A stretch of DNA of 27,879 bases from a virus (taxonomy: Duplodnaviria; Heunggongvirae; Uroviricota; Caudoviricetes), in IMG/VR virus record IMGVR_UViG_2648501730_000022, positions 1 through 27,879 of that record. One strand, given 5' to 3'. Every line of letters starts with the position of its first letter. Position 1 is the stretch's first letter. The notes beneath the pieces were generated by a model. It did not search any database. It was given only the letters and a program-made list of their open reading frames with translations, and was not told the origin of the DNA. A program made the position numbers and the translations under genes. Shown one piece after another: positions 2,403 to 20,064 of the stretch.

Positions 2403-2448
2403 GTTGAATACCTCCATGCAGTTATTTACTAGGCTTAGGGAGAAGGGA

Positions 2449-3662: not shown

Positions 3663-3664
3663 AG

Positions 3665-3710: not shown

Positions 3711-3712
3711 AA

Positions 3713-6067: not shown

Positions 6068-6070
6068 AAA

Positions 6071-6445
6071 TTACCCCAATTGTCCGCTCTTGAGCTTTTG
6101 TAATAATGAAGCGTCGAAAAAACTATCAACCAAAGCAGCGTTACGTTCTTCCTCTTTCTTACGAGCAATTTCTTTTATTTCTTCTTGCGTTTTAAATTGC
6201 TTGTCGTCCTTAATCATTCGGAATTGGTTAACATTGATTTTATTCAACCATTCACGAGTCATGTTAGGAGATGTAACGTGCATGTAATACATCGACTGTG
6301 CATGTCGCGCATCTTGAAACAGGGGGCTTTGTGGTTCAAGATATGTATCGAATATATGCAACGCCCAAAATAGCGTAATTGGCATATTATCCATCTCATC
6401 TTTACTCAAGCCCCGACGCATCATTTGCCGAAAATAAAAATTCAA
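6071..6445 (-). CDS. Tail assembly chaperone, -1 frame segment (T-like); probably made only as a frameshift fusion with the upstream ORF
   Basis: The track 'M' is a TTG codon with no ATG or obvious Shine-Dalgarno. This frame is open back into the last codons of the upstream ORF and ends 3 nt before the tape measure start. Confidence 0.45.
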   Translation of the reverse strand: MNFYFRQMMRRGLSKDEMDNMPITLFWALHIFDTYLEPQSPLFQDARHAQSMYYMHVTSPNMTREWLNKINVNQFRMIKDDKQFKTQEEIKEIARKKEEERNAALVDSFFDASLLQKLKSGQLG

Positions 6446-6453
6446 GAGCGGGT

Positions 6454-6762
6454 TTACTTTACCTCGTTTTCAATTACCGCCGCATCTTTCATCAATGATG
6501 CTTGAGCAACTAAGCCGATTAATTCGCTGCGGACGCTAGTATACAATGCCTTAACTTGTTCAATAGATTCAAATACTGGCTTACCGTCTTCATCTTCAAT
6601 ACAACGAAGAATAGAGCGTTCATCACGGTCTTTTTTATCAGTATTGAAAACATGTTCATTAAATTCTTGTACCGACATAGGGCGAGCATAGAACGTAAAT
6701 CCTCCGAGGGTTAAAGATTCACGTTTCGGAGAAAGAGCTTTCAGCATTTCATTCAGATTCAT
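6454..6762 (-). CDS. Tail assembly chaperone (G-like), 102 aa
   Basis: Small acidic protein immediately upstream of the tape measure region; ends ...GUA AAG UAA with the -1 frame open downstream. Confidence 0.55.
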   Translation of the reverse strand: MNLNEMLKALSPKRESLTLGGFTFYARPMSVQEFNEHVFNTDKKDRDERSILRCIEDEDGKPVFESIEQVKALYTSVRSELIGLVAQASLMKDAAVIENEVK

Positions 6763-6807
6763 TATTGTTTCCTCATTAATAGTGATTACGCTGTATTTAT
6801 TTAGAAT

Positions 6808-7314: not shown

Positions 7315-7329
7315 TTTGATTACTCCAAT

Positions 7330-7356
7330 AAAAAAGCCCCACCATTAAGGCAGGGC
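7330..7356 (-). terminator. Rho-independent terminator after the tail tube gene
   Basis: Minus-strand RNA GCCCUGCC-UUAAU-GGUGGGGC followed by U6 (plus-strand A-run 7330-7335). Near-identical to the terminator after the capsid gene. Confidence 0.7.
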
Positions 7357-7362
7357 TTATAA

Positions 7363-7482
7363 TTAATCTTTAGCCTTGCGGCTTCGTTTAGCTGTGGCTT
7401 TCGCCGTAACTTCTTCTACTTCTGGAATCACCACCGCTTCATGTTCCGGCTGTGGTTCCGGTTCGGGAAGTTCTTCGTTAGT
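7363..7482 (-). other. In-frame post-TGA extension of the tail tube gene (39 sense codons + TAA)
   Basis: Reading on past TGA at 7483-7485 gives TNEELPEPEPQPEHEAVVIPEVEEVTAKATAKRSRKAKD then TAA at 7363-7365; homologous to the extension after the capsid gene. Confidence 0.5.
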
Positions 7483-7956
7483 TCATCCGGCAGTGAAGAT
7501 TTGCTGTTTCAGCGGAGCACCATCCACCGCGAAGGTAAACTCTTTGGTTACAACTTCTTCATCGCCACCGTTCATAGCAACTTTAGAAATGAAGCCGTTG
7601 AAAGCGGTGCGAATACCAGTCTGTTTTGCTGCGTCAACGTAATATTCTACTTTAATCTGAATACGAGTACCGTCTTCGGCAGCTTTGATCAGTTTTTCAT
7701 GTACCGCATCGCCTGGGATGTAGTTAACGGTCAGAGTCAGATCAGGAACGTTCAGCTTCCCTACCAGTTTACGGTTATACTGAGAAGAGAAGGATTTAAC
7801 TTCTACAGTACCGCGCTCGATACCAGTTTCAGGAAAACCAGCACACTCTTTAATTTCTTCGTAGCTTTCGTGGTCGAGAGCGGTATTAGTGGTGTCCGCG
7901 TGATAGAACAGACTTACCAGACCACCAGTAAAAATATCTTTGAATTGCTGAGACAT
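7483..7956 (-). CDS. Putative major tail tube protein (157 aa)
   Basis: Short protein upstream of the chaperones and tape measure, followed by a strong terminator. ATG at 7954-7956 preceded by a GGGG Shine-Dalgarno. Homologous to the N-terminal ~160 aa of the 277-aa protein at 11595-12428 (shared DIFTG, FP.T, LTL, KA.ED motifs). Confidence 0.5.
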   Translation of the reverse strand: MSQQFKDIFTGGLVSLFYHADTTNTALDHESYEEIKECAGFPETGIERGTVEVKSFSSQYNRKLVGKLNVPDLTLTVNYIPGDAVHEKLIKAAEDGTRIQIKVEYYVDAAKQTGIRTAFNGFISKVAMNGGDEEVVTKEFTFAVDGAPLKQQIFTAG

Positions 7957-7986
7957 AGAATTACCCCTTAATTAAAATTGTTATTA

Positions 7987-8005
7987 CGGGGGAACTAGTC
8001 CCCCG
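7987..8005 (-). other. Hairpin CGGGGGA-ACTAG-TCCCCCG between fibre and tail tube genes
   Basis: 7-bp perfect stem; the same stem sequence recurs at 25555-25573. Confidence 0.5.
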
Positions 8006-8012
8006 ACTTTTA

Positions 8013-11000
8013 TTATTTAGTTGCTTTCAGTTCGGCAATTTCTTTCTGTAATGCTTCGATCTGGGCTTTATATTTGGCGTCCATTTCCTGCATAGCTTTG
8101 ATGATTAAAGCATTGACAGCAGAGTTAGAAATAGTCTTGATTGCTTCTGGATTTTCTGGATCTTCGGTGGATTGAATACCTACTGCTTCCGGCAATACTT
8201 CTTCCAGATCCTGAGCAATAATACCTACTTCGCGTTTAATCACACTACGGTCTTTAAGAGATTTAACTTTATCGTAGGTGTAGACTTTCAGTGAGTTTAC
8301 TTTCTCTAATGCGCCGTCCTGTAATTCTTCCTTGTTAATCTTCAAACGGGAGTCAGAGCGAATGTAAACATCGTTAAACGAACCGTTACGACCTGCGGTA
8401 AAGTCACCAGCAGCGTTAAAGTCAAAGTTAGTATCATGAACATGGAGACGAACAAGAGCGTTACCGATAGTACCGTCAGGAACGTGCACACCCATTGCTG
8501 CAATGTGATATTTACCCCAATGCGTCGCTTTCCATACGTTATGTGCCGAGTTGGTGGATTGAGGACACCCAACCATAAGACCAGCAGCACGGTCACGCCA
8601 GCTAGCCCAACTACCGCCAGCAACTTCACCACGAATCAGGCCATTACCGCCACCGGTTACAGTACCAGATTCCAACTGGATCATCTTATCCGCAAGTTTC
8701 CACGTCTGGGCTTGTTTCTGACCACGGAAGCGAATAACACCAGCATCATCGGAATACATCAAACCTAGTTCTAAGCCATTCGGATCTCTAAACCACAAAT
8801 GCTTATTACCAGTGCGCTTAAATTCAATATCAGCACCGTTAAGCGTGATATTACCGCCAGTGTGAATTGCTTGAGGCTTAACAGTACCGTTGATGGCAAA
8901 CTCAATTGCCGTAGTACCCGGACCGCCCGGACGTTGGGTATACCAATGCCAACCGCTTTCATCAGCACATTCAAATACTTGTTTACGAGCATCAGCGCCC
9001 CATGCACGAATATTGAAACTAGAAGTAGCTGTACCCTTACCCCAGCGAATCAGACCAGCAGATTCCAAATCACCGAAGAATTTAGTTTTAATCGCACCAG
9101 TTGCTAAAGTACGTTCAGTGGTGAAGTGAGCACCTTTACTATCTTCAAGCTGTATAACGTTATCACGAGCGTTATTGCTATCGCCCCAATGACTCAAACG
9201 GAAATAGTCGCGGGATTGTCCAGCACCAGCATCAAATGTTAAATATTGGCCTTTAATGTATGTGTTTCCAGCAAAACGAGCAGCACGACTTGCACGTTCT
9301 AAGACTAATGCACCTTCGTTACCATCACCACCCAAAGTAACATTACCGCTACCCAGATTGTAAATGAATGGACGATAGCCGTTCCAACCACCAAATTTAT
9401 CATTTTCGGCAGTAGACAGAAGATATACGTTTTGACCATCATTACGCCAGAATGCACCATAGTTACCGTAAATCATACGGAATGCATCACTGTTAGCAGC
9501 TACATATTGACCATTGGTGTATACAATTTTGGTAGCACCTGTGCTTAAAGATACTTGACCACTTGCTTCTAATTTAACAAAGTTTTTACCTTCGTCACTA
9601 TACCATTGAAAATCGTTAGTATCTGTAGAACCAAAACCAAACCAGCCTTGACGTTTATTAGCCCCGTCTCGCTGATCCATATATTCAAAATAGTTACTAC
9701 GACCAGTAGGACGCCACATACGAATCGCGTTATTGCCTTGCAGATGAAGTCTATCGACAAATAAACCATCACTACCAACAATTTTTAATACTTCTTTTTG
9801 GTCGGTGGAACCAGTAGCCAAACGATACACATCACCTTGAACAGTTTCATGCCATATTGTTTCCGCCGCACGACTGCGGAATTTACGCATATATTTTTTA
9901 TTGTTGTCTGGTACGTTATTAAGGCTCACAATATCATAGGTTGCTTGTGAGTTATTATCAAACATCAACGTTCCGGCTTTGTTTTCGGTGTTGAACATCG
10001 TAATAACACGAGCATCGGTAACACCAACAGAAGGTTTAACGAGAGTTAATTCAGGAACATCATGTACTGTCAGAGTAACGCCATCAGTTTTACCGTATTC
10101 GACAATAACGTTATCGGTGTAACGACCGTAGTTAACGTAGATATCGTAGTTATCACCGGAAGTATTAACCGCAAATACTTGATGAACGTTCAGAGCATTT
10201 CGACGATAAGCAGCAATACTAACGCCTTTCGGGTTATTGTTACCGGAACGGATGACAATTTCTACAAAGTCAACCTGATCATAAGAGTTAACGTTATAAC
10301 CATTACCACCGAAGATACGAAGCATTACCATTCGACCATTCTGTGGGATCGTAGCGGTTGCGATCTTGAAGTATCCACGAGTAGCATCACCAGAAGGAAC
10401 GGTCATTCTAACGTTCTTGATGAACATCTGATCAACTTCGGCTTTACTATACACACCCAATTCAGTCGGAGTCGGCTTATCACCTTCGTGATACATGCGG
10501 TAGCTGAATCGCTTATTACCATCTTTATCAAAGCCATAGGTTTTAACTTGAGATGAGCTAGACCCATAGTGGAACTCAAAACCGCGACCGTGTGCTTTAC
10601 CGCCAGAATGAGGAATGTTAAGGATTAAGTTACCCCAACCTTCGGCATTGTTTGGACGGAATGCACCAAAATAATCAAGGTTACGAGCACCAGCATCATC
10701 AAAATAGTTAGCTGTTTTGGTTAACAGATAGCCGTGATGGTAAGTGTTGGTATTCTTCTTGATGTAAGCAGCATCGGCACTACCTTCAATAGAATCAATT
10801 CGCTGGTTAGCTGCGGCAATTGCGGCATCAGTAGAAGATTTATTCTGGTCTACCTTGTTGTTAATTGCTGTATGGTTGCTATTAACTGTCCCCGTAAGAT
10901 TGGTGATCTTCGTGTCGGCATCGCGTTTATTATTTGCTACGGTCGTTTCTATGGCTGATTTATTTGCTGAGACAGTATTCGTTAAGTTAGTAACGTTGGT

Positions 11001-11513
11001 ATTAGTCTGATCAACTCGTGCATTAATATCTGTCTTGTTCTTGTTAATTGTTGCGTTGATAGTATCGCGGGTTGAAGTAATAGTCTGATTCAGTTCAGTC
11101 TTAGCAGCCGCCAGAGCGTTAGCCGCTTCGGTTTTATTGTTACCTACTGTGGTAGTCAAAGCATCAATTCGTTTGTTGGCTGCGGTGTCGCCAGCAGTGA
11201 TTGAAGCATTGAGAGCATCACGGGTAGAAGTGATAGTCTGATTCAGTTCAGCTTTAGCACTAGCCAGATTATTAGCGGCTTCTTGTTTGTTGGAAGCAAT
11301 AACACGGTCAGTGCTAGTTTTGTTATTGTCTACTTTCGTATTCAGTTCAGCGTGTTTTTCTGGAGAAACACTAATTTGGACTACGTTATTATTTTTGTCT
11401 TTGGTGTAAATCACATGATCCGCCAACTGTAAGGCGATTTCACCCTGTGATAATTGTTCCGGCGTTGGTTTTTTACCCGCCGTCTGTGTGCGTTTAAATT
11501 GGATTGATTGCAT
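8013..11513 (-). CDS. Long side tail fibre (1166 aa) with C-terminal intramolecular chaperone / peptidase S74-like domain
   Basis: ATG at 11511-11513 with GAGGTGA Shine-Dalgarno. Internal ~52-aa repeats near the N-terminus; a central motif (DESGWHWYTQR) recalled as P2 gpH / lambda Stf-like; C-terminal ~110 aa (SDSRLKINKEEL...VGIIAQDLEEVLPEAV...) matches the self-cleaving chaperone of T5 pb1 and K1F endosialidase. Confidence 0.75.
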   Translation of the reverse strand: MQSIQFKRTQTAGKKPTPEQLSQGEIALQLADHVIYTKDKNNNVVQISVSPEKHAELNTKVDNNKTSTDRVIASNKQEAANNLASAKAELNQTITSTRDALNASITAGDTAANKRIDALTTTVGNNKTEAANALAAAKTELNQTITSTRDTINATINKNKTDINARVDQTNTNVTNLTNTVSANKSAIETTVANNKRDADTKITNLTGTVNSNHTAINNKVDQNKSSTDAAIAAANQRIDSIEGSADAAYIKKNTNTYHHGYLLTKTANYFDDAGARNLDYFGAFRPNNAEGWGNLILNIPHSGGKAHGRGFEFHYGSSSSQVKTYGFDKDGNKRFSYRMYHEGDKPTPTELGVYSKAEVDQMFIKNVRMTVPSGDATRGYFKIATATIPQNGRMVMLRIFGGNGYNVNSYDQVDFVEIVIRSGNNNPKGVSIAAYRRNALNVHQVFAVNTSGDNYDIYVNYGRYTDNVIVEYGKTDGVTLTVHDVPELTLVKPSVGVTDARVITMFNTENKAGTLMFDNNSQATYDIVSLNNVPDNNKKYMRKFRSRAAETIWHETVQGDVYRLATGSTDQKEVLKIVGSDGLFVDRLHLQGNNAIRMWRPTGRSNYFEYMDQRDGANKRQGWFGFGSTDTNDFQWYSDEGKNFVKLEASGQVSLSTGATKIVYTNGQYVAANSDAFRMIYGNYGAFWRNDGQNVYLLSTAENDKFGGWNGYRPFIYNLGSGNVTLGGDGNEGALVLERASRAARFAGNTYIKGQYLTFDAGAGQSRDYFRLSHWGDSNNARDNVIQLEDSKGAHFTTERTLATGAIKTKFFGDLESAGLIRWGKGTATSSFNIRAWGADARKQVFECADESGWHWYTQRPGGPGTTAIEFAINGTVKPQAIHTGGNITLNGADIEFKRTGNKHLWFRDPNGLELGLMYSDDAGVIRFRGQKQAQTWKLADKMIQLESGTVTGGGNGLIRGEVAGGSWASWRDRAAGLMVGCPQSTNSAHNVWKATHWGKYHIAAMGVHVPDGTIGNALVRLHVHDTNFDFNAAGDFTAGRNGSFNDVYIRSDSRLKINKEELQDGALEKVNSLKVYTYDKVKSLKDRSVIKREVGIIAQDLEEVLPEAVGIQSTEDPENPEAIKTISNSAVNALIIKAMQEMDAKYKAQIEALQKEIAELKATK
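11051..11300 (-). repeat. Tandem in-frame ~156-nt repeats inside the fibre gene
   Basis: Two near-identical blocks (...AGTCTGATTCAGTTCAG...) encoding repeats of the form A.AK.ELNQTITSTRD.INA.I; further diverged copies upstream. Confidence 0.6.
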
Positions 11514-11544
11514 CTAGAATCACCTCACTATAAAACAGGAATAA

Positions 11545-11562
11545 GGGAGGCGTTAACCTCCC
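11545..11562 (-). terminator. Hairpin GGGAGG-CGTTAA-CCTCCC between the 277-aa gene and the fibre gene (attenuator-like)
   Basis: 6-bp GC stem followed by a U-rich tract on the minus strand, upstream of the fibre Shine-Dalgarno. Confidence 0.4.
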
Positions 11563-11594
11563 AACGTTCATGTTTTATTTAGGTAGGAGAATCC

Positions 11595-12428
11595 TTAGTA
11601 TTCGCCGAAATCGATCCGGTCAGTCTTAGCCACTGCGCCAATTTCGCTAGGTGTCGGTTTCTCATTGGTGGAATATACCTTGATCCATTCAGAACGACCG
11701 TTTTCCTGAATATTTCGGACACGTAAACGCGGTGCGCCAGAAGTATTACAGGTTAATTGCCATGCGCCATGCTCATTAGCTTGAAGGTGAATTAATGCTG
11801 TGTCGGTTGAATATGGATTACCGCTAGCAGTTCCCTTGTAAGTTACGAAACGGTTTCCGGCTAATGCCTCGCTGTCAATCGGACCCGTGAATGGATTTAC
11901 ACCAGCACCCAAACCAAAATCACCCTGACGTAAGATCCGGCCTTCGGTAGCAATACCCCTTGCCAAAATCCCGCCATCTGGTTCAAGTTTAAATTCCAGT
12001 GTTACAGCTTTGTTATCACTACCACGGGTTTTATGTGATGTGACGTAAGCATCGAATATACAAAAGTACCCTGTGTTAGCAGCACTATAGCCAGAGTTCA
12101 CAACATAGAACATACGGAAGCGTAAAGGTGTTTTATCCTCTACCGCTTTCATCAACATTGCTTGATGTTCATCGTCAAGAACACGGTTTAATGTGAGTGT
12201 TGTCGGTTCCAGTCTACGATAACCAGCAAGTTTCCCCGTAGCGTCCTGATCGTACTCTTCCAGAGTTTCTATCTCTGTGGATTCGGTTAGCGTAGGGAAT
12301 GCTGCGATGTTCTCCATAGAACTAAAGCTAGGATCGAAAAAGTCGACCTGATTGTCTATCTGGTTAGAGATCGACACTTCAACATGTGATCCAGTGAAAA
12401 TATCTAAGTTATCTTGTGTAATATTCAT
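11595..12428 (-). CDS. Tail-tube-like paralog with extra ~115-aa C-terminal domain (277 aa)
   Basis: N-terminal ~160 aa homologous to the 157-aa tail tube protein; unique C-terminal domain. Confidence 0.45.
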   Translation of the reverse strand: MNITQDNLDIFTGSHVEVSISNQIDNQVDFFDPSFSSMENIAAFPTLTESTEIETLEEYDQDATGKLAGYRRLEPTTLTLNRVLDDEHQAMLMKAVEDKTPLRFRMFYVVNSGYSAANTGYFCIFDAYVTSHKTRGSDNKAVTLEFKLEPDGGILARGIATEGRILRQGDFGLGAGVNPFTGPIDSEALAGNRFVTYKGTASGNPYSTDTALIHLQANEHGAWQLTCNTSGAPRLRVRNIQENGRSEWIKVYSTNEKPTPSEIGAVAKTDRIDFGEY

Positions 12429-12437
12429 TATTACCCC

Positions 12438-12860
12438 TTAAAAACGCGCTAGATAAGAAAATTTAAGGCTAAGTGTCCCAACGATACCCCCATCACTAGA
12501 ATCATCGTCATAATCGGTATTAGAAGCTACTGGAGTGATATCTGAAATAGAGAAGCCCAAATCTTTAAATCGTGGGTTATCCGGCTGAATCTGGATTATC
12601 TGGCAAATACCCTCATGGATTTTTGTTTCATGAATCTGAGAATATAATTGCATTTCGATAACGCATTCAGCTTGCATTGCATTACCACCACGAACACGCG
12701 TATAAGTTTCATTCATGCCAGTAATCCAACAAACCACGTCATCACTAAAGCCTTGCTGAGTTTGTTCTACGTTTAAAGCCAGACCTAAATCTTGTTCGAT
12801 AATATCTTGCAAGGCGCGTTTGATTTTCAGTCTCGGCATATTATTAACGGTAGCGAGCAT
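12438..12860 (-). CDS. Head-tail connector / tail completion protein (140 aa)
   Basis: Assigned by position between capsid and tail genes; overlaps the upstream gene by 17 nt. Confidence 0.3.
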   Translation of the reverse strand: MLATVNNMPRLKIKRALQDIIEQDLGLALNVEQTQQGFSDDVVCWITGMNETYTRVRGGNAMQAECVIEMQLYSQIHETKIHEGICQIIQIQPDNPRFKDLGFSISDITPVASNTDYDDDSSDGGIVGTLSLKFSYLARF

Positions 12861-13134
12861 GTGTACCCCCTGCTAAAGTGATAAAGCAATCACAAGTATT
12901 GTCACCATTGCGCTTAACGTATTGAACTTTGAAACGCTGGTTTTCTACTGTGACAATATCACCTTGCTTTAAGTCTCCCTCACGACAGAATAGAAATTCG
13001 GTTTCTGTCATTACACCTGATTCGTCGGTAGTAGTAATTTCATGGTAAGCACGAATTGATTTACCACCTTCCACCGAAAATACAGGAGCACTTTTAAACA
13101 TTCGATTTAATTGTGATTCTGATAATTTGAACAT
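12844..13134 (-). CDS. Head-tail adaptor / head completion protein (96 aa)
   Basis: Small ORF immediately after the capsid terminator; assigned by synteny. Confidence 0.3.
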   Translation of the reverse strand: MFKLSESQLNRMFKSAPVFSVEGGKSIRAYHEITTTDESGVMTETEFLFCREGDLKQGDIVTVENQRFKVQYVKRNGDNTCDCFITLAGGTHARYR

Positions 13135-13164
13135 AGTTACCCCCTTTATGGAGTATTTACATAC

Positions 13165-13190
13165 AAAAAAGCCCCACCGTTAGGCAGGGC
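13165..13190 (-). terminator. Rho-independent terminator after the capsid gene
   Basis: Minus-strand RNA GCCCUGCC-UAAC-GGUGGGGC followed by U6 (plus-strand A-run 13165-13170). Confidence 0.7.
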
Positions 13191-13196
13191 TAATTA

Positions 13197-13325
13197 TTAT
13201 TCTTTAGTTTTACGTTGTTTTTTAACTGTGGCTTTCGCCGTAACCGTCTGAGATTCTTCTTCCTGAGATGGAATCAGATTTTCTTCCCCCAAATCGGGGG
13301 AAGGTTCAGATGGTTCTACGTTAGT
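13197..13325 (-). other. In-frame post-TGA extension of the capsid gene (42 sense codons + TAATAA)
   Basis: Reading on past TGA at 13326-13328 gives TNVEPSEPSPDLGEENLIPSQEEESQTVTAKATVKKQRKTKE then TAA TAA (13194-13199). Confidence 0.5.
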
Positions 13326-15332
13326 TCATTCAGCGGAGATGTGAAGAACTTTCAGAGCTTCCGGCTGAACTACGGTGAAGTCCAGGTCTACCCAGATACG
13401 CGGAACGATAGCAGACTGTGCGCGGTAAGTGGTGTCGTCCATATCCAGTTCCAGACCACCCCATTCACCGATCATGATACCGGAGAAGTCACCCAGAACG
13501 ATGTGGTCTGCCGGAATAACGCCAGAAGTAACTACATCGTAACCAGCCAGTTTGCCGTTTTCGATGATATAACCGGAAACGCCGTTATCTTTCAGGGTAG
13601 ATTCCAGTTCAGCAGCAGTTGCACCGCTCATTGCAAACTTGATGGACTGTGCCGGAACGCCAGCGTCGGTCAGTGCTGCAATTTCTTTCAGGAAGTCTTT
13701 GTAGCTAAAAGCGGCTTTCTTAGTAACGCGACCACCGTCTACCAGTTGCTTAACCAGACCTTTCGGACCGCGCTCGTTGTCTTTGTCAGACAGAATCAGT
13801 TGTTCCAGTTTGATCCGAACAGATTTGTTAATGTGATCAGTGATCAGGGTAGCAATATTCGGAACAGTTTTCAGAGACTGACGGCTGATCGGGTTGCCAC
13901 CAGCAAAAGTTTTCGGAGCCATTTTCACGTTTTCAAAGCTAGCCTTCGATTCGGGGGCACTTCCATTTTCATCAACAAAACCAAAGGCTTCGACGCTGGA
14001 AGCAGTCATTTTTGGTACTGCAATCGGGCTATTCAGACCAGACAGAACAGTCACACCCAGACGACCCAGAACAGACTGTGGAAGCAGCATTTCTACATAG
14101 GATTCGGTCAGCAGTTTTTCGTCGGTTACAGCGGTCAGAGTAGCTTTGGTGTTACCTTCGGAAGCAGCACGCAGAGCAGCAGCCGGAACGAATACAGAGC
14201 CACCGCGAGCAGCACGACCACGCTGCATTGCAGCACCAGCAGCCATAGCGGAATATTCAGCTTCGTTAGCGCCGAGCACGTCGCCATCTACCAGGGAGCG
14301 GATTACGTTATTAAGATCGAAAGTTTTTTCCATGATTTGTTCCTTATTAATTTGTTCGTTATTACGTTGAGCATTGGTAATGTTATTTAGTGCCTTAGTG
14401 CGGAATGCTTCCGGCGTCATATCTTTAACTGCCAATGCGCGTTCTAATTCTTCGTCGTTAATATTTAACTCACGAGCGATTGCTCGGATTTCTTCTTCGT
14501 CTTCTTCGGAACGTTCAGCCACTTCTTCGATTTTTTCTTCTTCAACCGGAGCGGCTTCACGTTCTTCTTTTACTTCTTCTGTTTCCCGAACAGTTGAACT
14601 ATCATCATCAACACTTTCAGGATGTTTAGCGTCTTTTCCGTCTTCGAGATTTTCATCTTCTTTATTCTCTTCAACTTGGCGCTCTTGAGTTTCTTCTACT
14701 TCCGGTTCTTTATTTTCTTCTACCGGAGTTTCTTCAACCTGAGCGGGTTCTTGTTCTTCTTTGATTTCTTCGATTTGTTCTTTAGTCATATCGCGTTTAG
14801 CCTCCAAATTAACTGTGATAGTATTTAGAGAGCGATTCAGACCCACGGTGTCGTCTGCGGGAACAGACACCCATGAAACCTCGTGAGGAATCCATTTAGT
14901 AACAATCAATTGTCCTTTGGTGTAGTCGATGTGATATTCTTTAATGTCATAACCGACAGAAATTTTTTCCATCGTACCTTCAATGACTTTATTACGAATA
15001 TCATTAGCCAAAGTGCCATGCTTAGAGAATTTAACCAGAGCACGACCTACGTTATCCGCATCGATTCGAGCGTTACAAACGACACCAATATGATTATCGA
15101 AATTATGATTGAACAGCAACGGAGCGTTATTATTCAGACGAGACAGATCAACCGCTTCCGGTGTATGTACCAGAATTTCATCTAATACCACCATTTCTTG
15201 ATTTTGCTCATCCCAGAATTGGCGCTGATAAGGCTGTTCACTGGAGAAAGCAATTTCAAATTCGTATTGATCATTCTGCCCTTCGTTAATAACTCCACCG
15301 TAACCGTTAAGATCGCGGCGAAATTTAAGCAT
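13326..15332 (-). CDS. Fused prohead protease (HK97/S78-like) / scaffold-like acidic coiled coil / major capsid protein (668 aa)
   Basis: N-terminal ~170 aa carry a His (HNFDNHIG) and the ExSxVxxPA signature (HEVSWVSVPADD) typical of HK97-family prohead proteases; residues ~180-300 are Glu/Lys-rich and helical; the C-terminal ~350 aa look like an HK97-fold capsid domain. Confidence 0.7.
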   Translation of the reverse strand: MLKFRRDLNGYGGVINEGQNDQYEFEIAFSSEQPYQRQFWDEQNQEMVVLDEILVHTPEAVDLSRLNNNAPLLFNHNFDNHIGVVCNARIDADNVGRALVKFSKHGTLANDIRNKVIEGTMEKISVGYDIKEYHIDYTKGQLIVTKWIPHEVSWVSVPADDTVGLNRSLNTITVNLEAKRDMTKEQIEEIKEEQEPAQVEETPVEENKEPEVEETQERQVEENKEDENLEDGKDAKHPESVDDDSSTVRETEEVKEEREAAPVEEEKIEEVAERSEEDEEEIRAIARELNINDEELERALAVKDMTPEAFRTKALNNITNAQRNNEQINKEQIMEKTFDLNNVIRSLVDGDVLGANEAEYSAMAAGAAMQRGRAARGGSVFVPAAALRAASEGNTKATLTAVTDEKLLTESYVEMLLPQSVLGRLGVTVLSGLNSPIAVPKMTASSVEAFGFVDENGSAPESKASFENVKMAPKTFAGGNPISRQSLKTVPNIATLITDHINKSVRIKLEQLILSDKDNERGPKGLVKQLVDGGRVTKKAAFSYKDFLKEIAALTDAGVPAQSIKFAMSGATAAELESTLKDNGVSGYIIENGKLAGYDVVTSGVIPADHIVLGDFSGIMIGEWGGLELDMDDTTYRAQSAIVPRIWVDLDFTVVQPEALKVLHISAE

Positions 15333-15352
15333 TTAATCACCTTTAATTAATT

Positions 15353-15369
15353 GGGGGCATTGCGCCCCC
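15353..15369 (-). other. Hairpin GGGGGC-ATTGC-GCCCCC between portal and capsid genes
   Basis: 6-bp G/C stem in the 45-nt intergenic gap. Confidence 0.45.
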
Positions 15370-15377
15370 GTTGGTTA

Positions 15378-16889
15378 TTAGGGATCGGTTTGAGAAGGGT
15401 TATCCTTGCTCTCACCATCAACGATAATATTTAGTGCGCTCTTTTCGGCTTGAATCTCTGAGAATACTTTTTCAGGATCATCACCACGTTCTAATATAAC
15501 GGCAGTACGTGATTTAAGTCCGTTATCAATTAAAGCAATCTCGGCGCTTACGTCTTTAAATGGATCGACGGATTCAAAACGAGGACGAATAATAGTAGTG
15601 TTCTCGATAATATGCGGAATTGCAGTAATACGAATCGGAACAATACCACGCGCAGAATAATGGCGTAGATATGCTTCAAAAATTGGCAATACCACTGTTT
15701 CAATCAATTTGTTTTGCAGTGCTTTAACGCGCGTTCTTTGAAGTAATTCGCCGTAGCGTGCGGCGCTGTAATTTATTTGGCTAGTATCGCCAGTTAAGCC
15801 CTGATTGAACACGCCAAGACCCATCGCTATACTCGTGAACATTCCATCATTGAAGCTGTTAAAGTCATCGCCGCTTTGCGTGGATTGAATACTCTTGATC
15901 GTTGCCCCTTCCGGTAATTCCTGAATAGTACCTGGCGCGAAATCGTGAATAACTTCCGGCGCTTGATATTGTTCATCATCTTCACCAGTATCAAAATCGT
16001 CACCAGAATCTTTCGGACGCTCGATGAACGCCATGCTACAACTTGAAATTCGTTTATGTACCAGTACAGCTTCGCGGAATGCGTCTTGATGTGCGATATC
16101 CTTAATCACTGGCAGGAAGTCAGTCACACCACGCAGAGATTCAGCCGCAAGTGGTTGATAATAATGACATACTTGCGAAGCATCTACGCGATAGTTATCA
16201 CCTGTGTAAGTCTGAGTCAGTAGGTTGATTTTACGAAACCAAAATGCAACAGGGCGCATTGTTTCTACGTCATACTCGATCCCCTGATAGATAGCGCGTT
16301 CTTTGCTTACTTCACGGTTGAGCGTCCAGTCGCACTTATCAGCAGACAGGATAGAAACATTTAACTCATTGTTTTCTTTGGTTAAAACTATGAAGCACTC
16401 ACCACCCATAACGCGCTCACGTTCAGCCATTACCAGCAATTCACGGAAGTTAAAGCGACCGTTACGAGAGAAGCGTTTAGCATTCTGCGCCCACTTCCAG
16501 AAAGCATTCTCGATCTGCTTATTCAGTGCGCTATCAAGTTTTCCATTTGATTTAACAACTGACGGCTTCGGATCTAGGCCAGTACCTACCACCATATCGG
16601 TGATGTATTGCGTGTAGCGACTGCCTACGGAGGTGTTTAAGGCCAGAGTACGACCCTGATCATAAAGGCGCTTACCATTCGATTTGAGAGCCTTATTGAA
16701 GGTTCCTGTGATAGTATCTTGTTGAAGCGATCCATCAATGCGATCACCAACCAGACCTAAACTTCGAGTAGCCAGAGATTTCTGGAATTTTTCTACTTGT
16801 TTGTCGATAAAGATTTTTTGTTGTTGCTGGCGGTGATTAGTTTTAACTGGAGTTTCTACCGCCTTTTTGCGTCGAAAAAGATTAAACAT
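15378..16889 (-). CDS. Portal protein, lambda gpB-like (503 aa)
   Basis: ~500 aa protein between the gpW-like and capsid genes; GGGG Shine-Dalgarno 6 nt before the ATG; acidic C-terminal region. Confidence 0.8.
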   Translation of the reverse strand: MFNLFRRKKAVETPVKTNHRQQQQKIFIDKQVEKFQKSLATRSLGLVGDRIDGSLQQDTITGTFNKALKSNGKRLYDQGRTLALNTSVGSRYTQYITDMVVGTGLDPKPSVVKSNGKLDSALNKQIENAFWKWAQNAKRFSRNGRFNFRELLVMAERERVMGGECFIVLTKENNELNVSILSADKCDWTLNREVSKERAIYQGIEYDVETMRPVAFWFRKINLLTQTYTGDNYRVDASQVCHYYQPLAAESLRGVTDFLPVIKDIAHQDAFREAVLVHKRISSCSMAFIERPKDSGDDFDTGEDDEQYQAPEVIHDFAPGTIQELPEGATIKSIQSTQSGDDFNSFNDGMFTSIAMGLGVFNQGLTGDTSQINYSAARYGELLQRTRVKALQNKLIETVVLPIFEAYLRHYSARGIVPIRITAIPHIIENTTIIRPRFESVDPFKDVSAEIALIDNGLKSRTAVILERGDDPEKVFSEIQAEKSALNIIVDGESKDNPSQTDP

Positions 16890-16899
16890 GATTTACCCC

Positions 16900-17394
16900 T
16901 TATCGCGTAAGACGTAATTTGATATTTTTAATCGGACTAATTCCCTGTTTACGTCGTTCGGCTTGAATTAATTTAGATAACTGACGTTCATAATCAGTCT
17001 TTAATTGCTGGAGAACAGCCAATGACTCATAGGCGAAAGTATTCCCTTTCACTGTCATTTGAGATAATGCGGCTTCGTCCCCAGATAAACGGGCGAAAAT
17101 AACTTGCTCGATTAAGGCGATAGTTTCCCGCAGATATTCTTTTTTGGATTGTTTGGCGAATACTGGCAAAACAGTTAATTCCTGCATTGATACCAGTTCT
17201 TCTTCCAAAGTTATTACGATGGTATATTTACCTTCGGCAAAATCTAAGGTTTTAATCTCATGATTAGCCGGAGAATCATCAACCTGATAGATAATACCTT
17301 TATTATTTCCTACCTGAATTGTTACACCCTCTTCATTCGCCAGCGTGACTTTTTCGCCTTTACGAATTACTAAGGGAATTAGTTCTAAACTCAT
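16900..17394 (-). CDS. Head-tail joining protein with gpW-like C-terminal half (164 aa)
   Basis: C-terminal ~70 aa follow the lambda gpW pattern (recalled, not aligned); sits between large terminase and portal as in lambda A-W-B. Confidence 0.45.
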   Translation of the reverse strand: MSLELIPLVIRKGEKVTLANEEGVTIQVGNNKGIIYQVDDSPANHEIKTLDFAEGKYTIVITLEEELVSMQELTVLPVFAKQSKKEYLRETIALIEQVIFARLSGDEAALSQMTVKGNTFAYESLAVLQQLKTDYERQLSKLIQAERRKQGISPIKNIKLRLTR

Positions 17395-17442
17395 AATTAC
17401 CCCTTATTTAATTGTTATTGGATTAACAATATTTAGGAGTAA

Positions 17443-17461
17443 GCCGCCCCGAAGGACGGCG
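17443..17461 (-). other. Hairpin with UUCG tetraloop downstream of the large terminase stop
   Basis: Minus-strand RNA CGCCGUCC-UUCG-GGGCGGC (one G-U pair); no U-run, so more likely a stabiliser or pause site than a terminator. Confidence 0.4.
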
Positions 17462-17466
17462 AGTTA

Positions 17467-19371
17467 TTAGAACGATGTTACCCAGCTACGGCCTCTATTT
17501 GGGCGTCTGGCGATGTTTTTACGTTGTGGTCGTGTGATTGGCTTATTTTCTTCGATTTGCTCGTCAGATTGCGATTTAGGAGCTTCTACGGGTTCTTCTG
17601 GTTCGCGGTTCAAACTATCTTTGATGGCTTCGAGTTTTTCCCATGACATTTTATTGAGTACATGGCGAGAAGCAGCATAGGAATAAGCCAGGCAGTCGAG
17701 AGCCTCGTTTCGTTGCTGACCAACTTTTACCCAACGTGTGGTATTACCCTGCCGTTTCAACTGTTCAGATAACAATTGTTCGCAGTAGTCATCAGGAACG
17801 TCACCAATCTGGAAGACCGTATGAGGATCGCTGTCTCTCAAGTTCCGGTTAATCATTTCACGGATCATCGTCTTAAGGTTGTTTACGCCCAGAATTTTAA
17901 GAGTAAAACCACCCGTTCTTGTGTCCTTGACCGGAAGGATTGGAGCATCAACATTGCTTGCCCCTTTAATGGCGCATAGGTTTTGCCACCTAGTGCAGAA
18001 GCGATAGATCACGTTTGTAGCTCGTCCGTTCGATGAGTCCACGAAAGCAGATAGCATCGGGATTCGTTGACCTGATCGGGTATAGAATTTAGCTTTCAGG
18101 AAGTTGTAAAGCTGGTCATATGCTGGCGATTCGTGGCGTTCGCAGTTCACATCATAGAATGATCGGTGATCAACTACGCATATCCCCTTACGAGAGATAC
18201 CCAGCAAGGTAGATTCCAGACGGTCTTTTTGCTGGTCAACTCCACCTACCAGAGCCAGAACATCATCAGGAATATTATCTAAGCTAATGTCAGTTTTCAG
18301 CGTTTCCAGTTCGTCGGCTGTGCGGTCTTCGTTAAGATCATCGAAGGTTTCACCGAGCACCACATTATAGAACGTTGCCAGTGACATATTCGCGTAGCTA
18401 TCAGCAAAGTCCACCACACACGCACGGATAGAACTAAACGGAGACATAAGGCGGTTAGCATGAAAACCGATTACTTCCGCATTTGGTTCGGTGGCGACCC
18501 ATTCTCCCTGAGCAACAGCACGGAGGCGATCTGGTTCTGACCAATCAGTTTCACATGACGGGCAACGGTAAACGGCTGTGTCTGGATTCGGCAGTGATTT
18601 ACCATTGATTACATGCCAATCAAAGAATACTCTACTCCATTCCATTACGTGTTTGTGTCCGCAATGCTGGCAAACGACGTGGTATTTTCTTTTATCCGAG
18701 AGTTCCCATTGTTGGTTTATCGCCCCATCCCGCGAAGTTGGAGTAGAAGCAATTACGATCCTTGCATCATCACCGAAAGTGGTTGCGCGTTGTTCCGCTA
18801 GCTGGATCGGGTTCCCTTCGTCTGACTCATCAGCCGCATCAACTTCATCCAGAATAATCAAAGGCAGTGTCTTACCGCGCAAGTGTGATGGACTGTTCAG
18901 CGACATGAAATACATGAATGATCCGTTACGAAGCTGAATAATCGATGAGTTGTTAACGGCATTGCGATCTGATTTGTCGGTGATCATCGCCTTTAATTCT
19001 GGGGTTGCCTCTAATACTGGCTTCACCTTACCCGCAATCCATGAGTTCAATTCTCGAACGTTCGCTTGCAAAACACCGATATTAGTAGGGTTACTGGCGA
19101 TCCTGTGAAAGATAATACCGTTTAGCACAAGAGTTTTACCCAACTGTGCCGAGCACTTTAGCACAATTTTTCGCCTATCTTCGGTGATCGCGTCCATCAT
19201 TCCACGTTGGAAGGGATGCAACTTAATTAGAGATCCGGCTTTAACACCATCGGTTGCAACTACATTAGCCTCTACCCATTCGCTAGGTTTCATCGTTTTA
19301 GGTGGGCGAATTGCCGCAGAGATATTTTTAAGAATCTTTTTTAATTTGGCCTTATTAGAAATCAGTTTCAT
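17467..19371 (-). CDS. Terminase large subunit, lambda GpA-like (634 aa)
   Basis: Walker A motif (KCSAQLGKT) near the N-terminus; Cys-rich segment (CQHCGHKH...CPSCETDW); size and position match lambda gpA (641 aa). Confidence 0.9.
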   Translation of the reverse strand: MKLISNKAKLKKILKNISAAIRPPKTMKPSEWVEANVVATDGVKAGSLIKLHPFQRGMMDAITEDRRKIVLKCSAQLGKTLVLNGIIFHRIASNPTNIGVLQANVRELNSWIAGKVKPVLEATPELKAMITDKSDRNAVNNSSIIQLRNGSFMYFMSLNSPSHLRGKTLPLIILDEVDAADESDEGNPIQLAEQRATTFGDDARIVIASTPTSRDGAINQQWELSDKRKYHVVCQHCGHKHVMEWSRVFFDWHVINGKSLPNPDTAVYRCPSCETDWSEPDRLRAVAQGEWVATEPNAEVIGFHANRLMSPFSSIRACVVDFADSYANMSLATFYNVVLGETFDDLNEDRTADELETLKTDISLDNIPDDVLALVGGVDQQKDRLESTLLGISRKGICVVDHRSFYDVNCERHESPAYDQLYNFLKAKFYTRSGQRIPMLSAFVDSSNGRATNVIYRFCTRWQNLCAIKGASNVDAPILPVKDTRTGGFTLKILGVNNLKTMIREMINRNLRDSDPHTVFQIGDVPDDYCEQLLSEQLKRQGNTTRWVKVGQQRNEALDCLAYSYAASRHVLNKMSWEKLEAIKDSLNREPEEPVEAPKSQSDEQIEENKPITRPQRKNIARRPNRGRSWVTSF

Positions 19372-19458
19372 GTAATTACCCTCATTACGAAATATGAAGG
19401 TATTTATTAAATTGTTGATATTTTGATAAATACGGGTATTAAGATTTAAGGGGGGTGT

Positions 19459-20064
19459 ATGCTAATTAATCAGCAAGAAAGAGATGAATTAGAATTAGCC
19501 TTGTCTTGTTGTACCGATCATGAATATCGTTTGCCAGTTAAGCACCATCACAAGAAGACTGATTACACTACATCCGGTTTTAGTCGCGAAGAAGCGAAGC
19601 AAATTTTAATCGAGTTGTATCGCGATCATGGGTATACAGATATCCATAACTTCTTTAAGAAGCACCGAACATCACAGACAGAGTTTCAGCGAGTCCGTGA
19701 ATGGTTTGATTTTGATATCAAGCGTTATTATCGAGTGGATGACGGTCCAATCTATCGGTTGCAGTGGAAGCCGATCAGGGAAGTGCTTAAACAGAAGAGA
19801 TTGAATCATGCCATTACACGCTATCGTAACGTGGCTTTCAAGAAAGGCTATGGTGATACAAGGGAATTGTTTGTAGAACTCGCTAACGTGCGATATAGCC
19901 ATTATTACAGGAATCCTAAAGAGTTCTTCGAAGTGCTGCGCAAGGTTGATATAAGTCGGGGTACATACTATTCACGGTTGAAGAAGTACGGGATTAAGGC
20001 AGAGTTTTTTATGTCAGTTGACGATGGAGAACTTTTTCCGATAAAATGTAAGTCCTCTAAATAA
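19459..20064 (+). CDS. Hypothetical basic protein with C-terminal HTH-like motif (201 aa)
   Basis: GGGGGG Shine-Dalgarno before the ATG; divergent from the terminase gene across an 87-bp gap; C-terminal SRGTYYSRLKKYGI resembles the 59-aa protein at 23335-23514. Confidence 0.5.
   Translation: MLINQQERDELELALSCCTDHEYRLPVKHHHKKTDYTTSGFSREEAKQILIELYRDHGYTDIHNFFKKHRTSQTEFQRVREWFDFDIKRYYRVDDGPIYRLQWKPIREVLKQKRLNHAITRYRNVAFKKGYGDTRELFVELANVRYSHYYRNPKEFFEVLRKVDISRGTYYSRLKKYGIKAEFFMSVDDGELFPIKCKSSK

Follow-up and report, generated by a model that had tools for sequence, protein, structure and literature searches.

The major capsid gene and the tail tube gene of this tailed dsDNA prophage of E. coli both end in TGA, and behind each stop the reading frame continues into a short tail, which is closed by two in-frame stops ahead of a terminator. 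The window, as we use the word here, is the whole stretch of DNA analysed (27,879 nucleotides). By comparing related copies, we showed that this module is strictly conserved, is exchanged in a modular way and evolves like coding sequence. The best reading of these results is a selected UGA readthrough that gives extended capsid and tube subunits. We favor it by a modest margin, given that the support is comparative, no experiment stands behind it, and translation of the tails is inferred. Their stoichiometry, their outward display and any function they may have are likewise inferred.

The capsid gene occupies 15332..13326 of the minus strand and ends in TGA. Its 668-aa product is a fusion of a prohead protease (S78), an acidic scaffold linker and an HK97-type major capsid protein; Pfam assigned Peptidase_S78 (PF04586) and Phage_capsid (PF05065) to it, and PHROGs matched the capsid protein to phrog_617, major head protein. 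The ORF closes with ...HISAE and then TGA at 13328..13326, and this stop, together with an invariant A at +4, lies in the leaky-stop hexanucleotide TGAACT (13323..13328, minus strand). Past the TGA, 42 sense codons follow in frame 0 (TNVEPSEPSPDLGEENLIPSQEEESQTVTAKATVKKQRKTKE, 13325..13200). The first 27 codons (13245..13325, minus strand) form an acidic, Pro/Glu-rich stalk, TNVEPSEPSPDLGEENLIPSQEEESQT, with a net charge of -8, and the remaining 15 codons (13200..13244, minus strand) form a basic tip, VTAKATVKKQRKTKE, with a net charge of +5. The tip opens with a conserved 19-nt block, GTTACGGCGAAAGCCACAG, at 13244..13226. Tandem in-frame stops, TAA TAA (13194..13199, minus strand), close the extension, and every capsid copy closes it with TAATAA (or TGATAA). 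A rho-independent terminator, AGCCCUGCC-UAAC-GGUGGGGCU plus a U-run, is located on the capsid side at 13164..13191 of the minus strand; its hairpin (13191..13170, followed by a T-run) begins 3 nt past the tandem stops.

The tail tube gene (7956..7483, minus strand) encodes a 157-aa protein resembling the N-terminal domain of lambda gpV. It matched Phage_TTP_11/12 slightly under the Pfam cut-offs, and its PHROGs match was phrog_158, major tail protein (profile positions 15-157 of 376). The ORF ends ...IFTAG and then TGA (7485..7483), again within TGAACT. The tube extension, TNEELPEPEPQPEHEAVVIPEVEEVTAKATAKRSRKAKD, contains 39 sense codons (7366..7482, minus strand) and consists of an acidic Pro/Glu stalk, TNEELPEPEPQPEHEAVVIPEVEE (-9), and a basic tip, VTAKATAKRSRKAKD (+5), with the conserved 19-nt block at 7410..7392. 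It is closed by TAA TTA TAA, which holds two in-frame stops (7357..7365, minus strand), and is followed by a rho-independent terminator homologous to that of the capsid gene (7326..7358, minus strand). The first-pass annotation had described the TGA end, the 42-codon in-frame tail, the TAA TAA, the terminator and the like arrangement at the tube gene, and all of these claims held. It had also stated that the other late genes end in TAA. This held as well, since 18 of the 20 listed minus-strand genes end in TAA and TGA is used for the capsid and tube genes only.

The capsid and tube copies have in common the sequence TGAACTAACG, the 19-nt block and a near-identical terminator (repeat families D3 and D16), and the middle of the extension is unalignable between them. 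In a scan of positions 1-20000 of the window, the two best terminator-like sites of the minus strand were 13191..13170 and 7358..7334. Both met the criterion for an intrinsic terminator, a G+C-rich hairpin followed by a U-run, and both were the dominant stems in folds. The spacing was identical in the two copies, the GCCC of the stem being 9 nt away from the stop's first base. This identity, together with the unusually strong constraint on the terminator and spacer, fits a control of the terminator coupled to translation. In this alternative, a readthrough ribosome would halt 6 nt before the stem and mask its 5' arm, RNA polymerase would run on, downstream expression would be tied to the readthrough rate, and the peptide would be secondary. 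We consider it very unlikely. The leading ribosome alone could act, and readthrough would bring it there in no more than a few per cent of cases, so that the effect, we infer, would not exceed the ordinary leak of the terminator. In addition, the conserved charge architecture of the peptide is left unexplained, and in one related locus (L104) the tube extension has stayed in frame despite a different terminator.

We collected about 100 related copies, representing 71 unique contexts, from 54-55 E. coli genomes, at least 32 IMG/VR prophages and about 27 metagenome contigs. The TGA was in frame with the 19-nt block in 71 of 71 unique contexts. The stop was always TGA-A, either TGAACT or TGAAAT (about 70 unique copies), and most copies have UGAACU. 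Among 53 unique homologous fragments, all 42 with an extension carried TGAACT or TGAAAT, and TGA-A and the extension co-occurred without exception. The capsid homologues at 86-96% identity all have the TGA and the extension, as does a second capsid lineage at just 40% identity; for this lineage, the junction of homology coincides precisely with the stop codon. In about 40% of these prophages, the tail tube gene carries the module in addition to the major capsid gene. Tube allele A has the TGA and the extension, whereas tube allele B (about 59% identity) ends in TAA-T without an extension. Capsid relatives at 33-38% identity (Atlantibacter, Leclercia, Yersinia and Phytobacter) also end in TAA and have no extension. 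The tail is not essential for this virion type, because tube allele B and the distant capsids do without it. Around the 19-nt block, the stalk and tip types reassort. Scans with this block and with the motif at the 5' start of the extension placed the module behind the capsid and tube genes of this prophage family only; the remaining matches were due to chance. Megablast against isolated phages gave no close relative, and searching a phage collection with the module gave a single 39-nt match, by chance. The nearest capsid from an isolated phage, that of phage DCP80 (40% identity), ends in TAA and has no module.

All 34 unique IMG/VR variants were free of stops in frame 0 of the extension and contained stops in each of the two remaining sense frames. 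Metagenome copies (about 27) and three additional E. coli genomes showed the same pattern. In a frame-agnostic census of the 71 unique contexts, the distance from the TGA to the block was 36, 57, 66, 75, 81 or 84 nt, always a multiple of 3. The copies encode 45 distinct peptides, which fall into 12 length classes of 27-45 codons and without exception keep the frame; the neighboring non-coding spacer of the same loci carries indels of 1-2 nt and is 65-68 nt long. Frame-breaking indels or in-frame stops in homologues with otherwise conserved nucleotides had been named at the outset as the finding that would refute readthrough. None occurred in the approximately 100 copies, and the reading was not refuted. 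These counts need to be weighed with care. Because the homology junction lies exactly at the stop and the copies are related and recombine, fewer of the frame tests are independent; the copies are linked by descent and recombination, and the independent tests may amount to about 10 events, not 70. It is also possible that indels in multiples of 3 are mechanically favored in GAA- and CCN-rich sequence.

The codon usage of the extension was like that of the late genes of the phage in frame 0 only. The codon adaptation index (CAI) was 0.75, 0.69 and 0.70 in frame 0 vs. 0.39-0.51 in the other frames, with 0.71 for the portal gene and 0.78 for the capsid gene, and random synonymous recoding attained the observed CAI in 0.05-0.5% of trials. 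An open frame of this length arose by chance in 13-25% of dinucleotide shuffles (product 0.005 over three sequence families). Open-frame length taken alone is weak evidence, whereas the comparative data are not weak. The codon-level dN/dS check called for by the first-pass annotation gave a mixed outcome. For the tube copy it was supportive: the pN/pS was 0.44 in frame 0 vs. 1.1-1.3 in the other frames and thus discriminated between them. For the capsid copy, the value (0.62-0.75) was no lower than in the other frames and is uninformative. The interpretation of the arrangement as readthrough is supported by comparative, not experimental, data.

We considered whether the region could instead be an untranslated 3' UTR module. 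In this case, the roughly 130 nt from stop to terminator would serve as a stabilizer or processing site of the mRNA 3' end, a small RNA with the 19-nt block as its seed, or a recombination joint, and the frame would be kept through descent and triplet-like repeats. Several observations speak for it. All variants of the 19-nt block are non-synonymous, and synonymous changes are absent. The block can form a GNRA mini-hairpin (GGC-GAAA-GCC, 10 nt) that survives one wobble (C-to-U) and one compensatory double change (C-G to A-U), so the block may possibly be constrained at the nucleotide level. The mosaic junction at the stop codon and the reassortment of stalks and tips around the block also fit this alternative, as do the strong hairpins in the capsid copies. 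One of these, CUUCCCCC-GAUUU-GGGGGAAG (13283..13303, minus strand), lies within the capsid stalk, 22 nt past the UGA. It folds better than shuffled sequences (z = -3.0), is limited to the long capsid forms, and has an unchanged stem among the long variants. An A-rich tract followed by a terminator is, moreover, known to resemble the 3' ends of Hfq-type small RNAs.

Other observations speak against the 3' UTR module, and we regard the alternative as unlikely. Outside the block, the region is the least conserved intergenic part, with a pairwise difference of 9.2% in the extension vs. 0.8% in the terminator and RBS spacer (almost invariant in relatives up to 13135). The extension is the variable part of the region and therefore not a conserved RNA element. 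The capsid and tube middles do not align, a consensus RNA structure sought in 14 tube variants yielded nothing beyond mini-hairpins of 3-4 bp, the tube segment folded no better than shuffles (z = -0.6), and Rfam gave no family match at E <= 1. The region thus falls outside the structured RNAs, with a possible exception in the 10-nt mini-hairpin alone, which has one compensatory change. Furthermore, the 3' UTR module does not explain why frame 0 is open and the other two frames closed in all variants, why only indels in multiples of 3 occur beside a spacer with indels of 1-2 nt, or why late-gene codon usage is specific to frame 0. It also leaves unexplained the AAA-to-CGA changes, which keep the charge and destroy the A-richness.

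The hairpin downstream of the UGA in the capsid copies could also point to another decoding of the UGA, as selenocysteine, by a phage-encoded suppressor tRNA or through a reassigned code. E. coli has the selenocysteine machinery. This alternative is all but excluded. No hairpin is common to all copies: the tube copy lacks one altogether, the hairpin of the short capsid form is another one and has a GAAA loop, and the spacing differs between forms (9-22 nt). A SelB-binding hairpin kept at one short spacing past the UGA, as SECIS-directed insertion would require, is not shared by the capsid-long, capsid-short and tube copies, and again there was no Rfam match. With regard to suppression or reassignment, no tRNA gene was found in the window and no tRNA with a UCA anticodon in 30 related loci, and TGA is present solely as the terminal codon of the capsid and tube genes.

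Returning to the readthrough reading, we examined the character of the predicted peptide. The stalk has a charge of -3 to -9 with 41-58% E/D/P, and the tip a charge of +5 to +7, in every variant listed. At conserved basic positions, the changes included K-to-R exchanges (AAA to CGA) as well as the synonymous pairs CGT/CGC and AAA/AAG. The physico-chemical architecture is kept despite the turnover of the sequence. A peptide fused to its gene without a stop was absent from 5.8 billion clusters and 1.84 billion representatives. There is no stop-less fusion among the available records, and therefore the stop was never lost there. The same protein searches revealed no homologues of the peptide within other proteins. 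The module is absent from protein databases because gene callers stop at TGA. The sole database match, P0001, was a miscalled 33-aa ORF with a TTG start inside another copy. An independent small gene inside the extension was considered and rejected, there being no conserved start and P0001 being a miscall. The antisense ORFs that lie over the extensions, 7441..7971(+) and 13215..14390(+), were also rejected; the length over which they stay open varies (111-205 codons), and their translations look like shadow frames of codon-biased genes.

Pfam and PHROGs showed no domain in the extension. Tips of the GRPPKAK type, and only these, scored 13.2-14.2 bits (E 0.04-0.09) against Pfam AT_hook (PF02178), for which the gathering score is 17.4. 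AT-hook membership was rejected with this sub-threshold score. The tips KKVGRPPKAK and KRGRKAKN resemble AT-hooks, which are DNA-binding motifs of the minor groove, in that a Lys/Arg cluster surrounds a GRP or RGR core, whereas the capsid tip of the window, KKQRKTKE, and its tube tip, KRSRKAKD, lack such a core. DNA binding by the AT-hook-like tips is possible, and no binding data exist.

A further rival of the readthrough reading is a tolerated leak, in which basal readthrough of the UGA yields a tail without function, and the downstream sequence is only kept harmless (short, soluble, disordered and firmly terminated) so that assembly of the lattice is not poisoned. The low-complexity stalk with its weak purifying selection (pN/pS 0.56-0.75), the very free length of the extension, the tandem stops that close it, and the tube allele B and distant capsids that have no tail all agree with it. 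A tolerated leak, however, predicts common changes from TGA to TAA, the stop of 18 of the 20 genes, yet TGA-A is present in every copy. Nor does it account for a tip held at +5 to +7 through K/R exchanges and the reassortment of tip types, for the recruitment of one module to two unrelated genes and to the capsid lineage at 40% identity, or for a codon usage that equals that of bona fide late genes. We consider this explanation unlikely as well.

The readthrough reading can be put as a sequence of putative steps. The module would be a portable unit of UGA, hidden coding tail, double stop and terminator, joined to the 3' side of the major capsid gene and, in about 40% of these prophages, of the tube gene as well. 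The majority of ribosomes would stop at the UGA and release a subunit of normal length. A minority, probably at the per-cent level, would read the UGA with a near-cognate tRNA, for which Trp-tRNA is expected in E. coli, translate 27-45 codons in frame 0, and end at the strong tandem UAA. The predicted product is a capsid or tube subunit bearing a disordered, acidic, Pro-rich stalk and a tip of 5-7 net positive charges; in some variants the tip contains an AT-hook-like motif, GRP or RGR. Since a virion is built from hundreds of capsid and tube subunits, a handful of tails would be present on every particle. The C-termini are presumed to face outward, following the example of other HK97-fold shells and lambda-type tubes. 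As to function, our guess is that the tails adhere weakly, by electrostatic attraction, to polyanionic surfaces or to nucleic acid.

Published data offer some scale for these steps. In Qβ, ribosomes pass the coat/A1 stop, with its hexanucleotide UGAACU, at a rate of 3-5% (PMC13517186). Reporter assays in E. coli K-12 give a UGA readthrough of about 2% at 37 C, rising to about 4% at 25 C, with Trp-tRNA competing with RF2 (PMC10570021). RF2 is more efficient in natural E. coli isolates than in K-12, and therefore the readthrough may be below 1%. With respect to display, the C-terminal domains of gpV, pb6 and gp17.1* protrude outside the tube (PMC8718954), and by profile comparison the tube protein equals the gpV N-domain. 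In the HK97-fold shells of encapsulins, the C-terminus is exposed and used for external display (PMC8229669).

A bolder reading can also be proposed, for which we see slightly more reason for doubt than for belief. It takes the module as a portable 'readthrough display cassette' composed of UGA-A, acidic stalk, cationic tip, double stop and terminator. This cassette would have been grafted by recombination onto unrelated structural genes, with its stalk and tip parts reshuffled, and, through the UGA leakiness of the host, would supply both head and tail with a small number of copies of a single peptide that is adhesive or binds nucleic acid.

If the readthrough reading is true, tailed phages too would set subunit stoichiometry through the host's intrinsic UGA leakiness, and an easily engineered E. 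coli system for context-dependent UGA readthrough would be available, based on exchanges among TGA, TAA and TGG in an inducible prophage. The results suggest that abundant structural genes elsewhere may be worth screening for a 3' arrangement of 'TGA + open frame + double stop', and the stalk-and-tip design suggests a low-copy display scaffold for capsid and tail. To our knowledge, and in the literature searched, there is no earlier report of a tailed dsDNA phage whose virion proteins undergo programmed stop-codon readthrough, or of the same recoded peptide on both capsid and tube. Recoding that extends subunits in tailed phages is known only through frameshifting, and readthrough for this purpose is textbook knowledge only for the ssRNA phage Qβ.

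Qβ (Qubevirus) is similar in that a leaky UGA ends the major coat gene in the identical UGAACU context (PMC13517186). Host near-cognate tRNA reads this stop at a few per cent and places a minor, C-terminally extended coat subunit in every virion (PMC13517186). The Qβ-type criteria met here are a leaky stop in a readthrough-prone context at both genes and in-frame, coding-like evolution. There are also differences. Qβ is an ssRNA levivirus, whereas the present module belongs to a tailed dsDNA prophage with an HK97-fold capsid. The A1 extension of Qβ is a folded domain of about 200 aa, whereas the extension here is a disordered peptide of 27-45 aa; here the tail tube also receives the same tail, and translation is inferred. 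No sequence homology to Qβ coat/A1 was found: the capsid is of the HK97-type Phage_capsid family, and the peptide has no relatives in the 5.8 billion clusters and 1.84 billion representatives. The resemblance is by analogy and concerns the mechanism only.

Long capsid or tail forms made by frameshifting are described in the Listeria phages PSA, A118 and A500 and the Lactobacillus phage A2, and also for SPP1 gp17.1* and T3/T7 10B (PMC5009743, PMC8718954). Their extensions are displayed outside and are thought to have moved between genes by recombination (PMC5009743, PMC8718954). The likeness would be that the two most abundant structural genes are recoded at their 3' ends to give a fixed minority of extended subunits; in our case the arrangement is present on both genes, and the two products of each gene are inferred. 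These phages use a +1 or -1 shift at slippery sites, whereas here the tail lies in the zero frame behind a stop. Access by frameshifting does not apply here, the +1 and +2 frames containing stops in 34 of 34 unique variants. Their extensions are mostly folded Ig-like or FN3 domains (that of T7 is not Ig-like), whereas here a short charged peptide has no domain match, and the capsid and tube have the same peptide module together with its terminator. By analogy, the module may be viewed as the readthrough counterpart of the frameshift-made long proteins of PSA, A2 and T7.

All genes in the capsid-tube part of the window lie on the minus strand. The capsid gene (15332..13326, -) encodes a 668-aa fusion of prohead protease, acidic scaffold and HK97-type capsid (Pfam Peptidase_S78 and Phage_capsid; phrog_617) and ends ...HISAE-TGA (TGA at 13328..13326, -). 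Behind this stop, 42 sense codons in frame 0 (13325..13200, -) run up to TAA TAA, and the stem of a strong intrinsic terminator (13191..13170, -) starts 3 nt further on. The tail tube gene (7956..7483, -; 157 aa, lambda-type TTP) ends ...IFTAG-TGA and is followed by 39 sense codons, TAA TTA TAA and a terminator homologous to the capsid one. Common to both copies are TGAACTAACG, a 19-nt block (GTTACGGCGAAAGCCACAG) and the terminator. TAA ends 18 of the 20 minus-strand genes listed; TGA ends the capsid and tube genes only. The first-pass annotation had claimed a capsid TGA followed by 42 in-frame codons and TAA TAA, the same arrangement behind the tube gene, sequence common to the two tails, and TAA at the end of the other late genes. 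The re-read layout and the stop census agree with each claim, so that description was accurate in all details. We refer to UGA-A, extension, tandem stops and terminator together as the module.

Tail-fibre genes are interleaved with core morphogenesis genes (8013-11513 and 6808-7314, -). Between the head-tail joining genes and the tube gene sits a gene for 1166 aa, whose product has a T4 gp34 trimerisation domain and an S74 intramolecular chaperone; the tube gene is in turn separated from the tail assembly chaperone by a gene for a protein whose N-domain is of the gp38-adhesin type. The two chaperone genes (6762..6454 and 6445..6071, -) overlap in the usual way, with the -1 frame open from 6469. 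A candidate shift site, A_AAG (6454-6472, -; GGTAAAGTAA), immediately precedes the TAA stop and, judged from sequence alone, may give this operon a second recoding site, this one of a conventional kind. Antisense ORFs at 7441-7971 (+) and 13215-14390 (+) start within each extension and extend over the tube gene and over a portion of the capsid gene, respectively. We rejected them as genes: over the tube gene, relatives have open lengths anywhere between 111 and 205 codons, and the translations resemble shadow frames of codon-biased genes.

The window is an E. coli prophage; its family occurs in 55 of the 5,426 complete genomes of this species, and no close relative was found among 50,697 deposited phage genomes. 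The module alone occurred at 75 places in 54 genomes, every one chromosomal, and in those genomes nothing was annotated over it past the capsid CDS end. The comparison set included 32 IMG/VR loci gathered via capsid homology and 39 stretches gathered via the 19-nt block. Metagenomes gave 51 stretches via a degenerate form of the block, roughly half being true copies, and five distant capsid relatives belonging to other genera and three divergent E. coli copies were added. TGA and an in-frame extension were found in every capsid homologue of 86-96% identity, and also in a second capsid lineage with an identity of only 40%. Both features were likewise constant in tube allele A (>=83% identity); tube allele B (~59% identity) ended TAA-T without an extension. 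Capsids 33-38% identical (Atlantibacter, Leclercia, Yersinia, Phytobacter) ended in TAA and also had no extension. One related locus, L001, has a different tail module, with three small genes ahead of tube allele B. Escherichia phage DCP80 (L128; PQ671644, a 141-kb Straboviridae record) carries at 5.8-7.8 kb an HK97-type protease-capsid fusion 40% identical to that of the window, with a TAA end and no module. Such a fusion is odd for a T4-like genome and could reflect a mixed assembly or an acquired gene.

The reading frame was preserved throughout. First, frame 0 of the extension contained no stop in 34 unique IMG/VR variants, and both other sense frames contained stops in 34/34. Second, a frame-agnostic census of 71 unique contexts gave TGA-to-block distances of 36, 57, 66, 75, 81 and 84 nt, all multiples of three. 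The 45 distinct extension peptides fell into 12 length classes (27-45 codons). As a control, the 65-nt non-coding spacer of the same loci (stops, terminator, ribosome-binding site) showed 1- and 2-nt indels (lengths 65, 66, 67 and 68 nt). Finally, stalk and tip types reassorted, in frame each time; the GRPPKAK tip was paired with 27-, 18- and 11-codon stalks, and at locus L104 a tube extension was joined to a different terminator. Frame-breaking indels or in-frame stops amid conserved nucleotides, which the first-pass annotation had named as refuting, had no example among the collected copies. Taken alone, an open frame this long is nothing unusual, as 13-25% of shuffled sequences are open too.

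Part of this conservation is due to descent. For the capsid lineage of 40% identity, homology with the window ends at 15336 and restarts at 13332, just ahead of TGA, continuing at ~93% through the extension, terminator and next genes. This swap of the whole capsid gene as a cassette (13332-15336, -) was seen in four loci (L038, L054, L058, L096), the replacement being only 40% identical in protein and the junctions falling exactly at the start codon region and just before TGA. The module thus travels with the downstream block, its 5' edge being the stop codon, and is therefore joinable to different genes. It follows that TGA and frame are conserved partly by descent, and that the independent indel or recombination events number about ten, not seventy.

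Codon usage in frame 0 was late-gene-like. The CAI was 0.75 (capsid long form), 0.69 (tube) and 0.70 (capsid short form), against 0.39-0.51 in shifted frames; for reference, capsid scored 0.78, portal 0.71 and tape measure 0.705. When the same peptides were recoded at random with synonymous codons, the observed CAI was attained in only 0.05-0.5% of trials. Every variant listed had a stalk of net charge -3 to -9 (41-58% Glu/Asp/Pro) and a tip starting V-T-A-K-A-T (net charge +5 to +7). The first-pass claim that the middle differs in nucleotides yet keeps frame and Glu/Pro-rich composition held. The scaffold linker between the protease and capsid domains (14491-14780, -; families D2 and D4 of the repeat list) has an extremely high Glu content and contains direct repeats, and it is similar in composition to the stalk. 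In the tip, conserved Arg codons alternated between CGT and CGC and Lys codons between AAA and AAG, and one Lys became Arg via AAA to CGA, a conservative exchange at the protein level but a radical one in an A-rich RNA. The weak spot of the coding case is dN/dS. Codon-level constraint, proposed as a check by the first-pass annotation, was only partly borne out: the tube copy discriminated between frames (0.44 vs 1.1-1.3), and the capsid copy did not (0.62-0.75, other frames no worse). Neighbouring genes gave 0.27-0.29.

We considered whether the extension is a conserved RNA element rather than coding, which we regard as unlikely. In 24 loci carrying the long capsid form, sequences differed pairwise by 9.2% of nucleotides in the extension, by 11% over the final 300 nt of the capsid gene, by 6.4% in the gene that follows and by 0.8% in terminator plus spacer. 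The extension is therefore variable, and it is the terminator that is constrained. No nucleotide alignment was possible for the middle of the capsid and tube copies. For 14 tube variants, RNAalifold gave only 3-4 bp mini-hairpins and one long-range 6-bp helix, the tube segment folded no better than shuffles (z = -0.6 and -0.4), and Rfam had no match at E <= 1. In favour of an RNA element, the 19-nt block (13226-13244 and 7392-7410, -) showed zero synonymous changes in ~70 unique copies, its six variants all being non-synonymous. Its core, GGC-GAAA-GCC, can form a GNRA mini-hairpin, and the GTG variant retains pairing as U.G. In L130 (E. coli CFSAN061761), both stem sides were changed (GGA-GAAA-UCC) and one codon was lost, in frame. 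The block could be a recombination joint or an RNA feature within a translated tail. Separately, the 65-nt stretch 13135-13199 (-), comprising the tandem stops, terminator and RBS of the next gene, differed by 0.8% over 24 loci, flanking coding DNA by 6-11%; this constraint is far above that of any neighbouring sequence.

We favour UGA readthrough yielding tailed capsid and tube subunits as the likely explanation; it is supported by comparative evidence, and translation has not been demonstrated. The first stop was TGA followed by A in every copy (TGAACT 41, TGAAAT 12; n=53 unique fragments, leaving out the TAA-ending tube allele B). UGAACU is identical to the stop hexanucleotide of the Qβ coat gene, where 3-5% readthrough yields the A1 protein (PMC13517186). 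In E. coli K-12 reporters, UGA is read through at a rate of ~2% at 37 C and 4% at 25 C, with Trp-tRNA competing with RF2 (PMC10570021). Neither an encoded suppressor tRNA (window and related loci) nor a SECIS-like hairpin common to the copies was found. An ARAGORN 91-nt 'tRNA' antisense in the 140-aa gene of 14/30 related loci (L003 9658-9748, L007 9622-9712, 12 others) is most likely a false positive and no UGA suppressor. Its site corresponds to about 12620-12710 (+) of the window, which has no call, and its anticodon varies (TTC, TTG, TTT). The long capsid form has a strong hairpin, CUUCCCCC-GAUUU-GGGGGAAG (13283-13303, -), 22 nt past UGA; the short form (L007, L011 and others) has CCGGAA-GAAA-UUCCGG 9-15 nt past UGA; the tube copy is without such a strong hairpin. 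These hairpins might tune readthrough of the capsid gene only.

In the proposed mechanism, UGA would terminate most ribosomes, and a minority in the per-cent range would insert a near-cognate amino acid (Trp expected) and add the tail. A virion would have capsid and tube subunits in the hundreds, as estimated for a ~35-38 kb prophage from related contig sizes, so that several tails per particle would result. The tube protein corresponds to the lambda gpV N-domain (1-156), and PHROG relatives carry extra C-terminal domains. By analogy, the tails probably point outwards, since the C-terminal domains of gpV, T5 pb6 and SPP1 gp17.1* protrude outside the tube (PMC8718954) and the C-terminus of HK97-fold encapsulin shells is exposed and exploited for external display (PMC8229669). 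A cationic tip on an acidic tether may bind weakly and electrostatically to polyanions (LPS, capsule, mucin, DNA); this is suggested by charge without binding data, and an AT-hook match in some tips was sub-threshold. E. coli offers an easy test of the readthrough reading.

We searched 5.8 billion protein clusters with a profile of 18 tail peptides, and 1.84 billion representatives exhaustively with phmmer and the peptide of the window; each search hit nothing but a 33-aa miscalled ORF within another copy. Therefore, no sequenced relative shows the tail fused through loss of the stop, and protein databases do not contain the peptide. The literature searched held no case of stop-codon readthrough in tailed-phage capsid or tail genes. 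Qβ A1 is alike in the proposed mechanism, but Qβ shares no homology with the prophage proteins and the module is no member of its group. Nor does the module belong with the long capsid and tail proteins made by frameshifting (Listeria PSA, A118 and A500; Lactobacillus A2; SPP1 gp17.1*; T3/T7 10B), as its shifted frames are closed, so that there is no frameshift, and it lacks an Ig-like domain; the biology, however, is similar (PMC5009743, PMC8718954).
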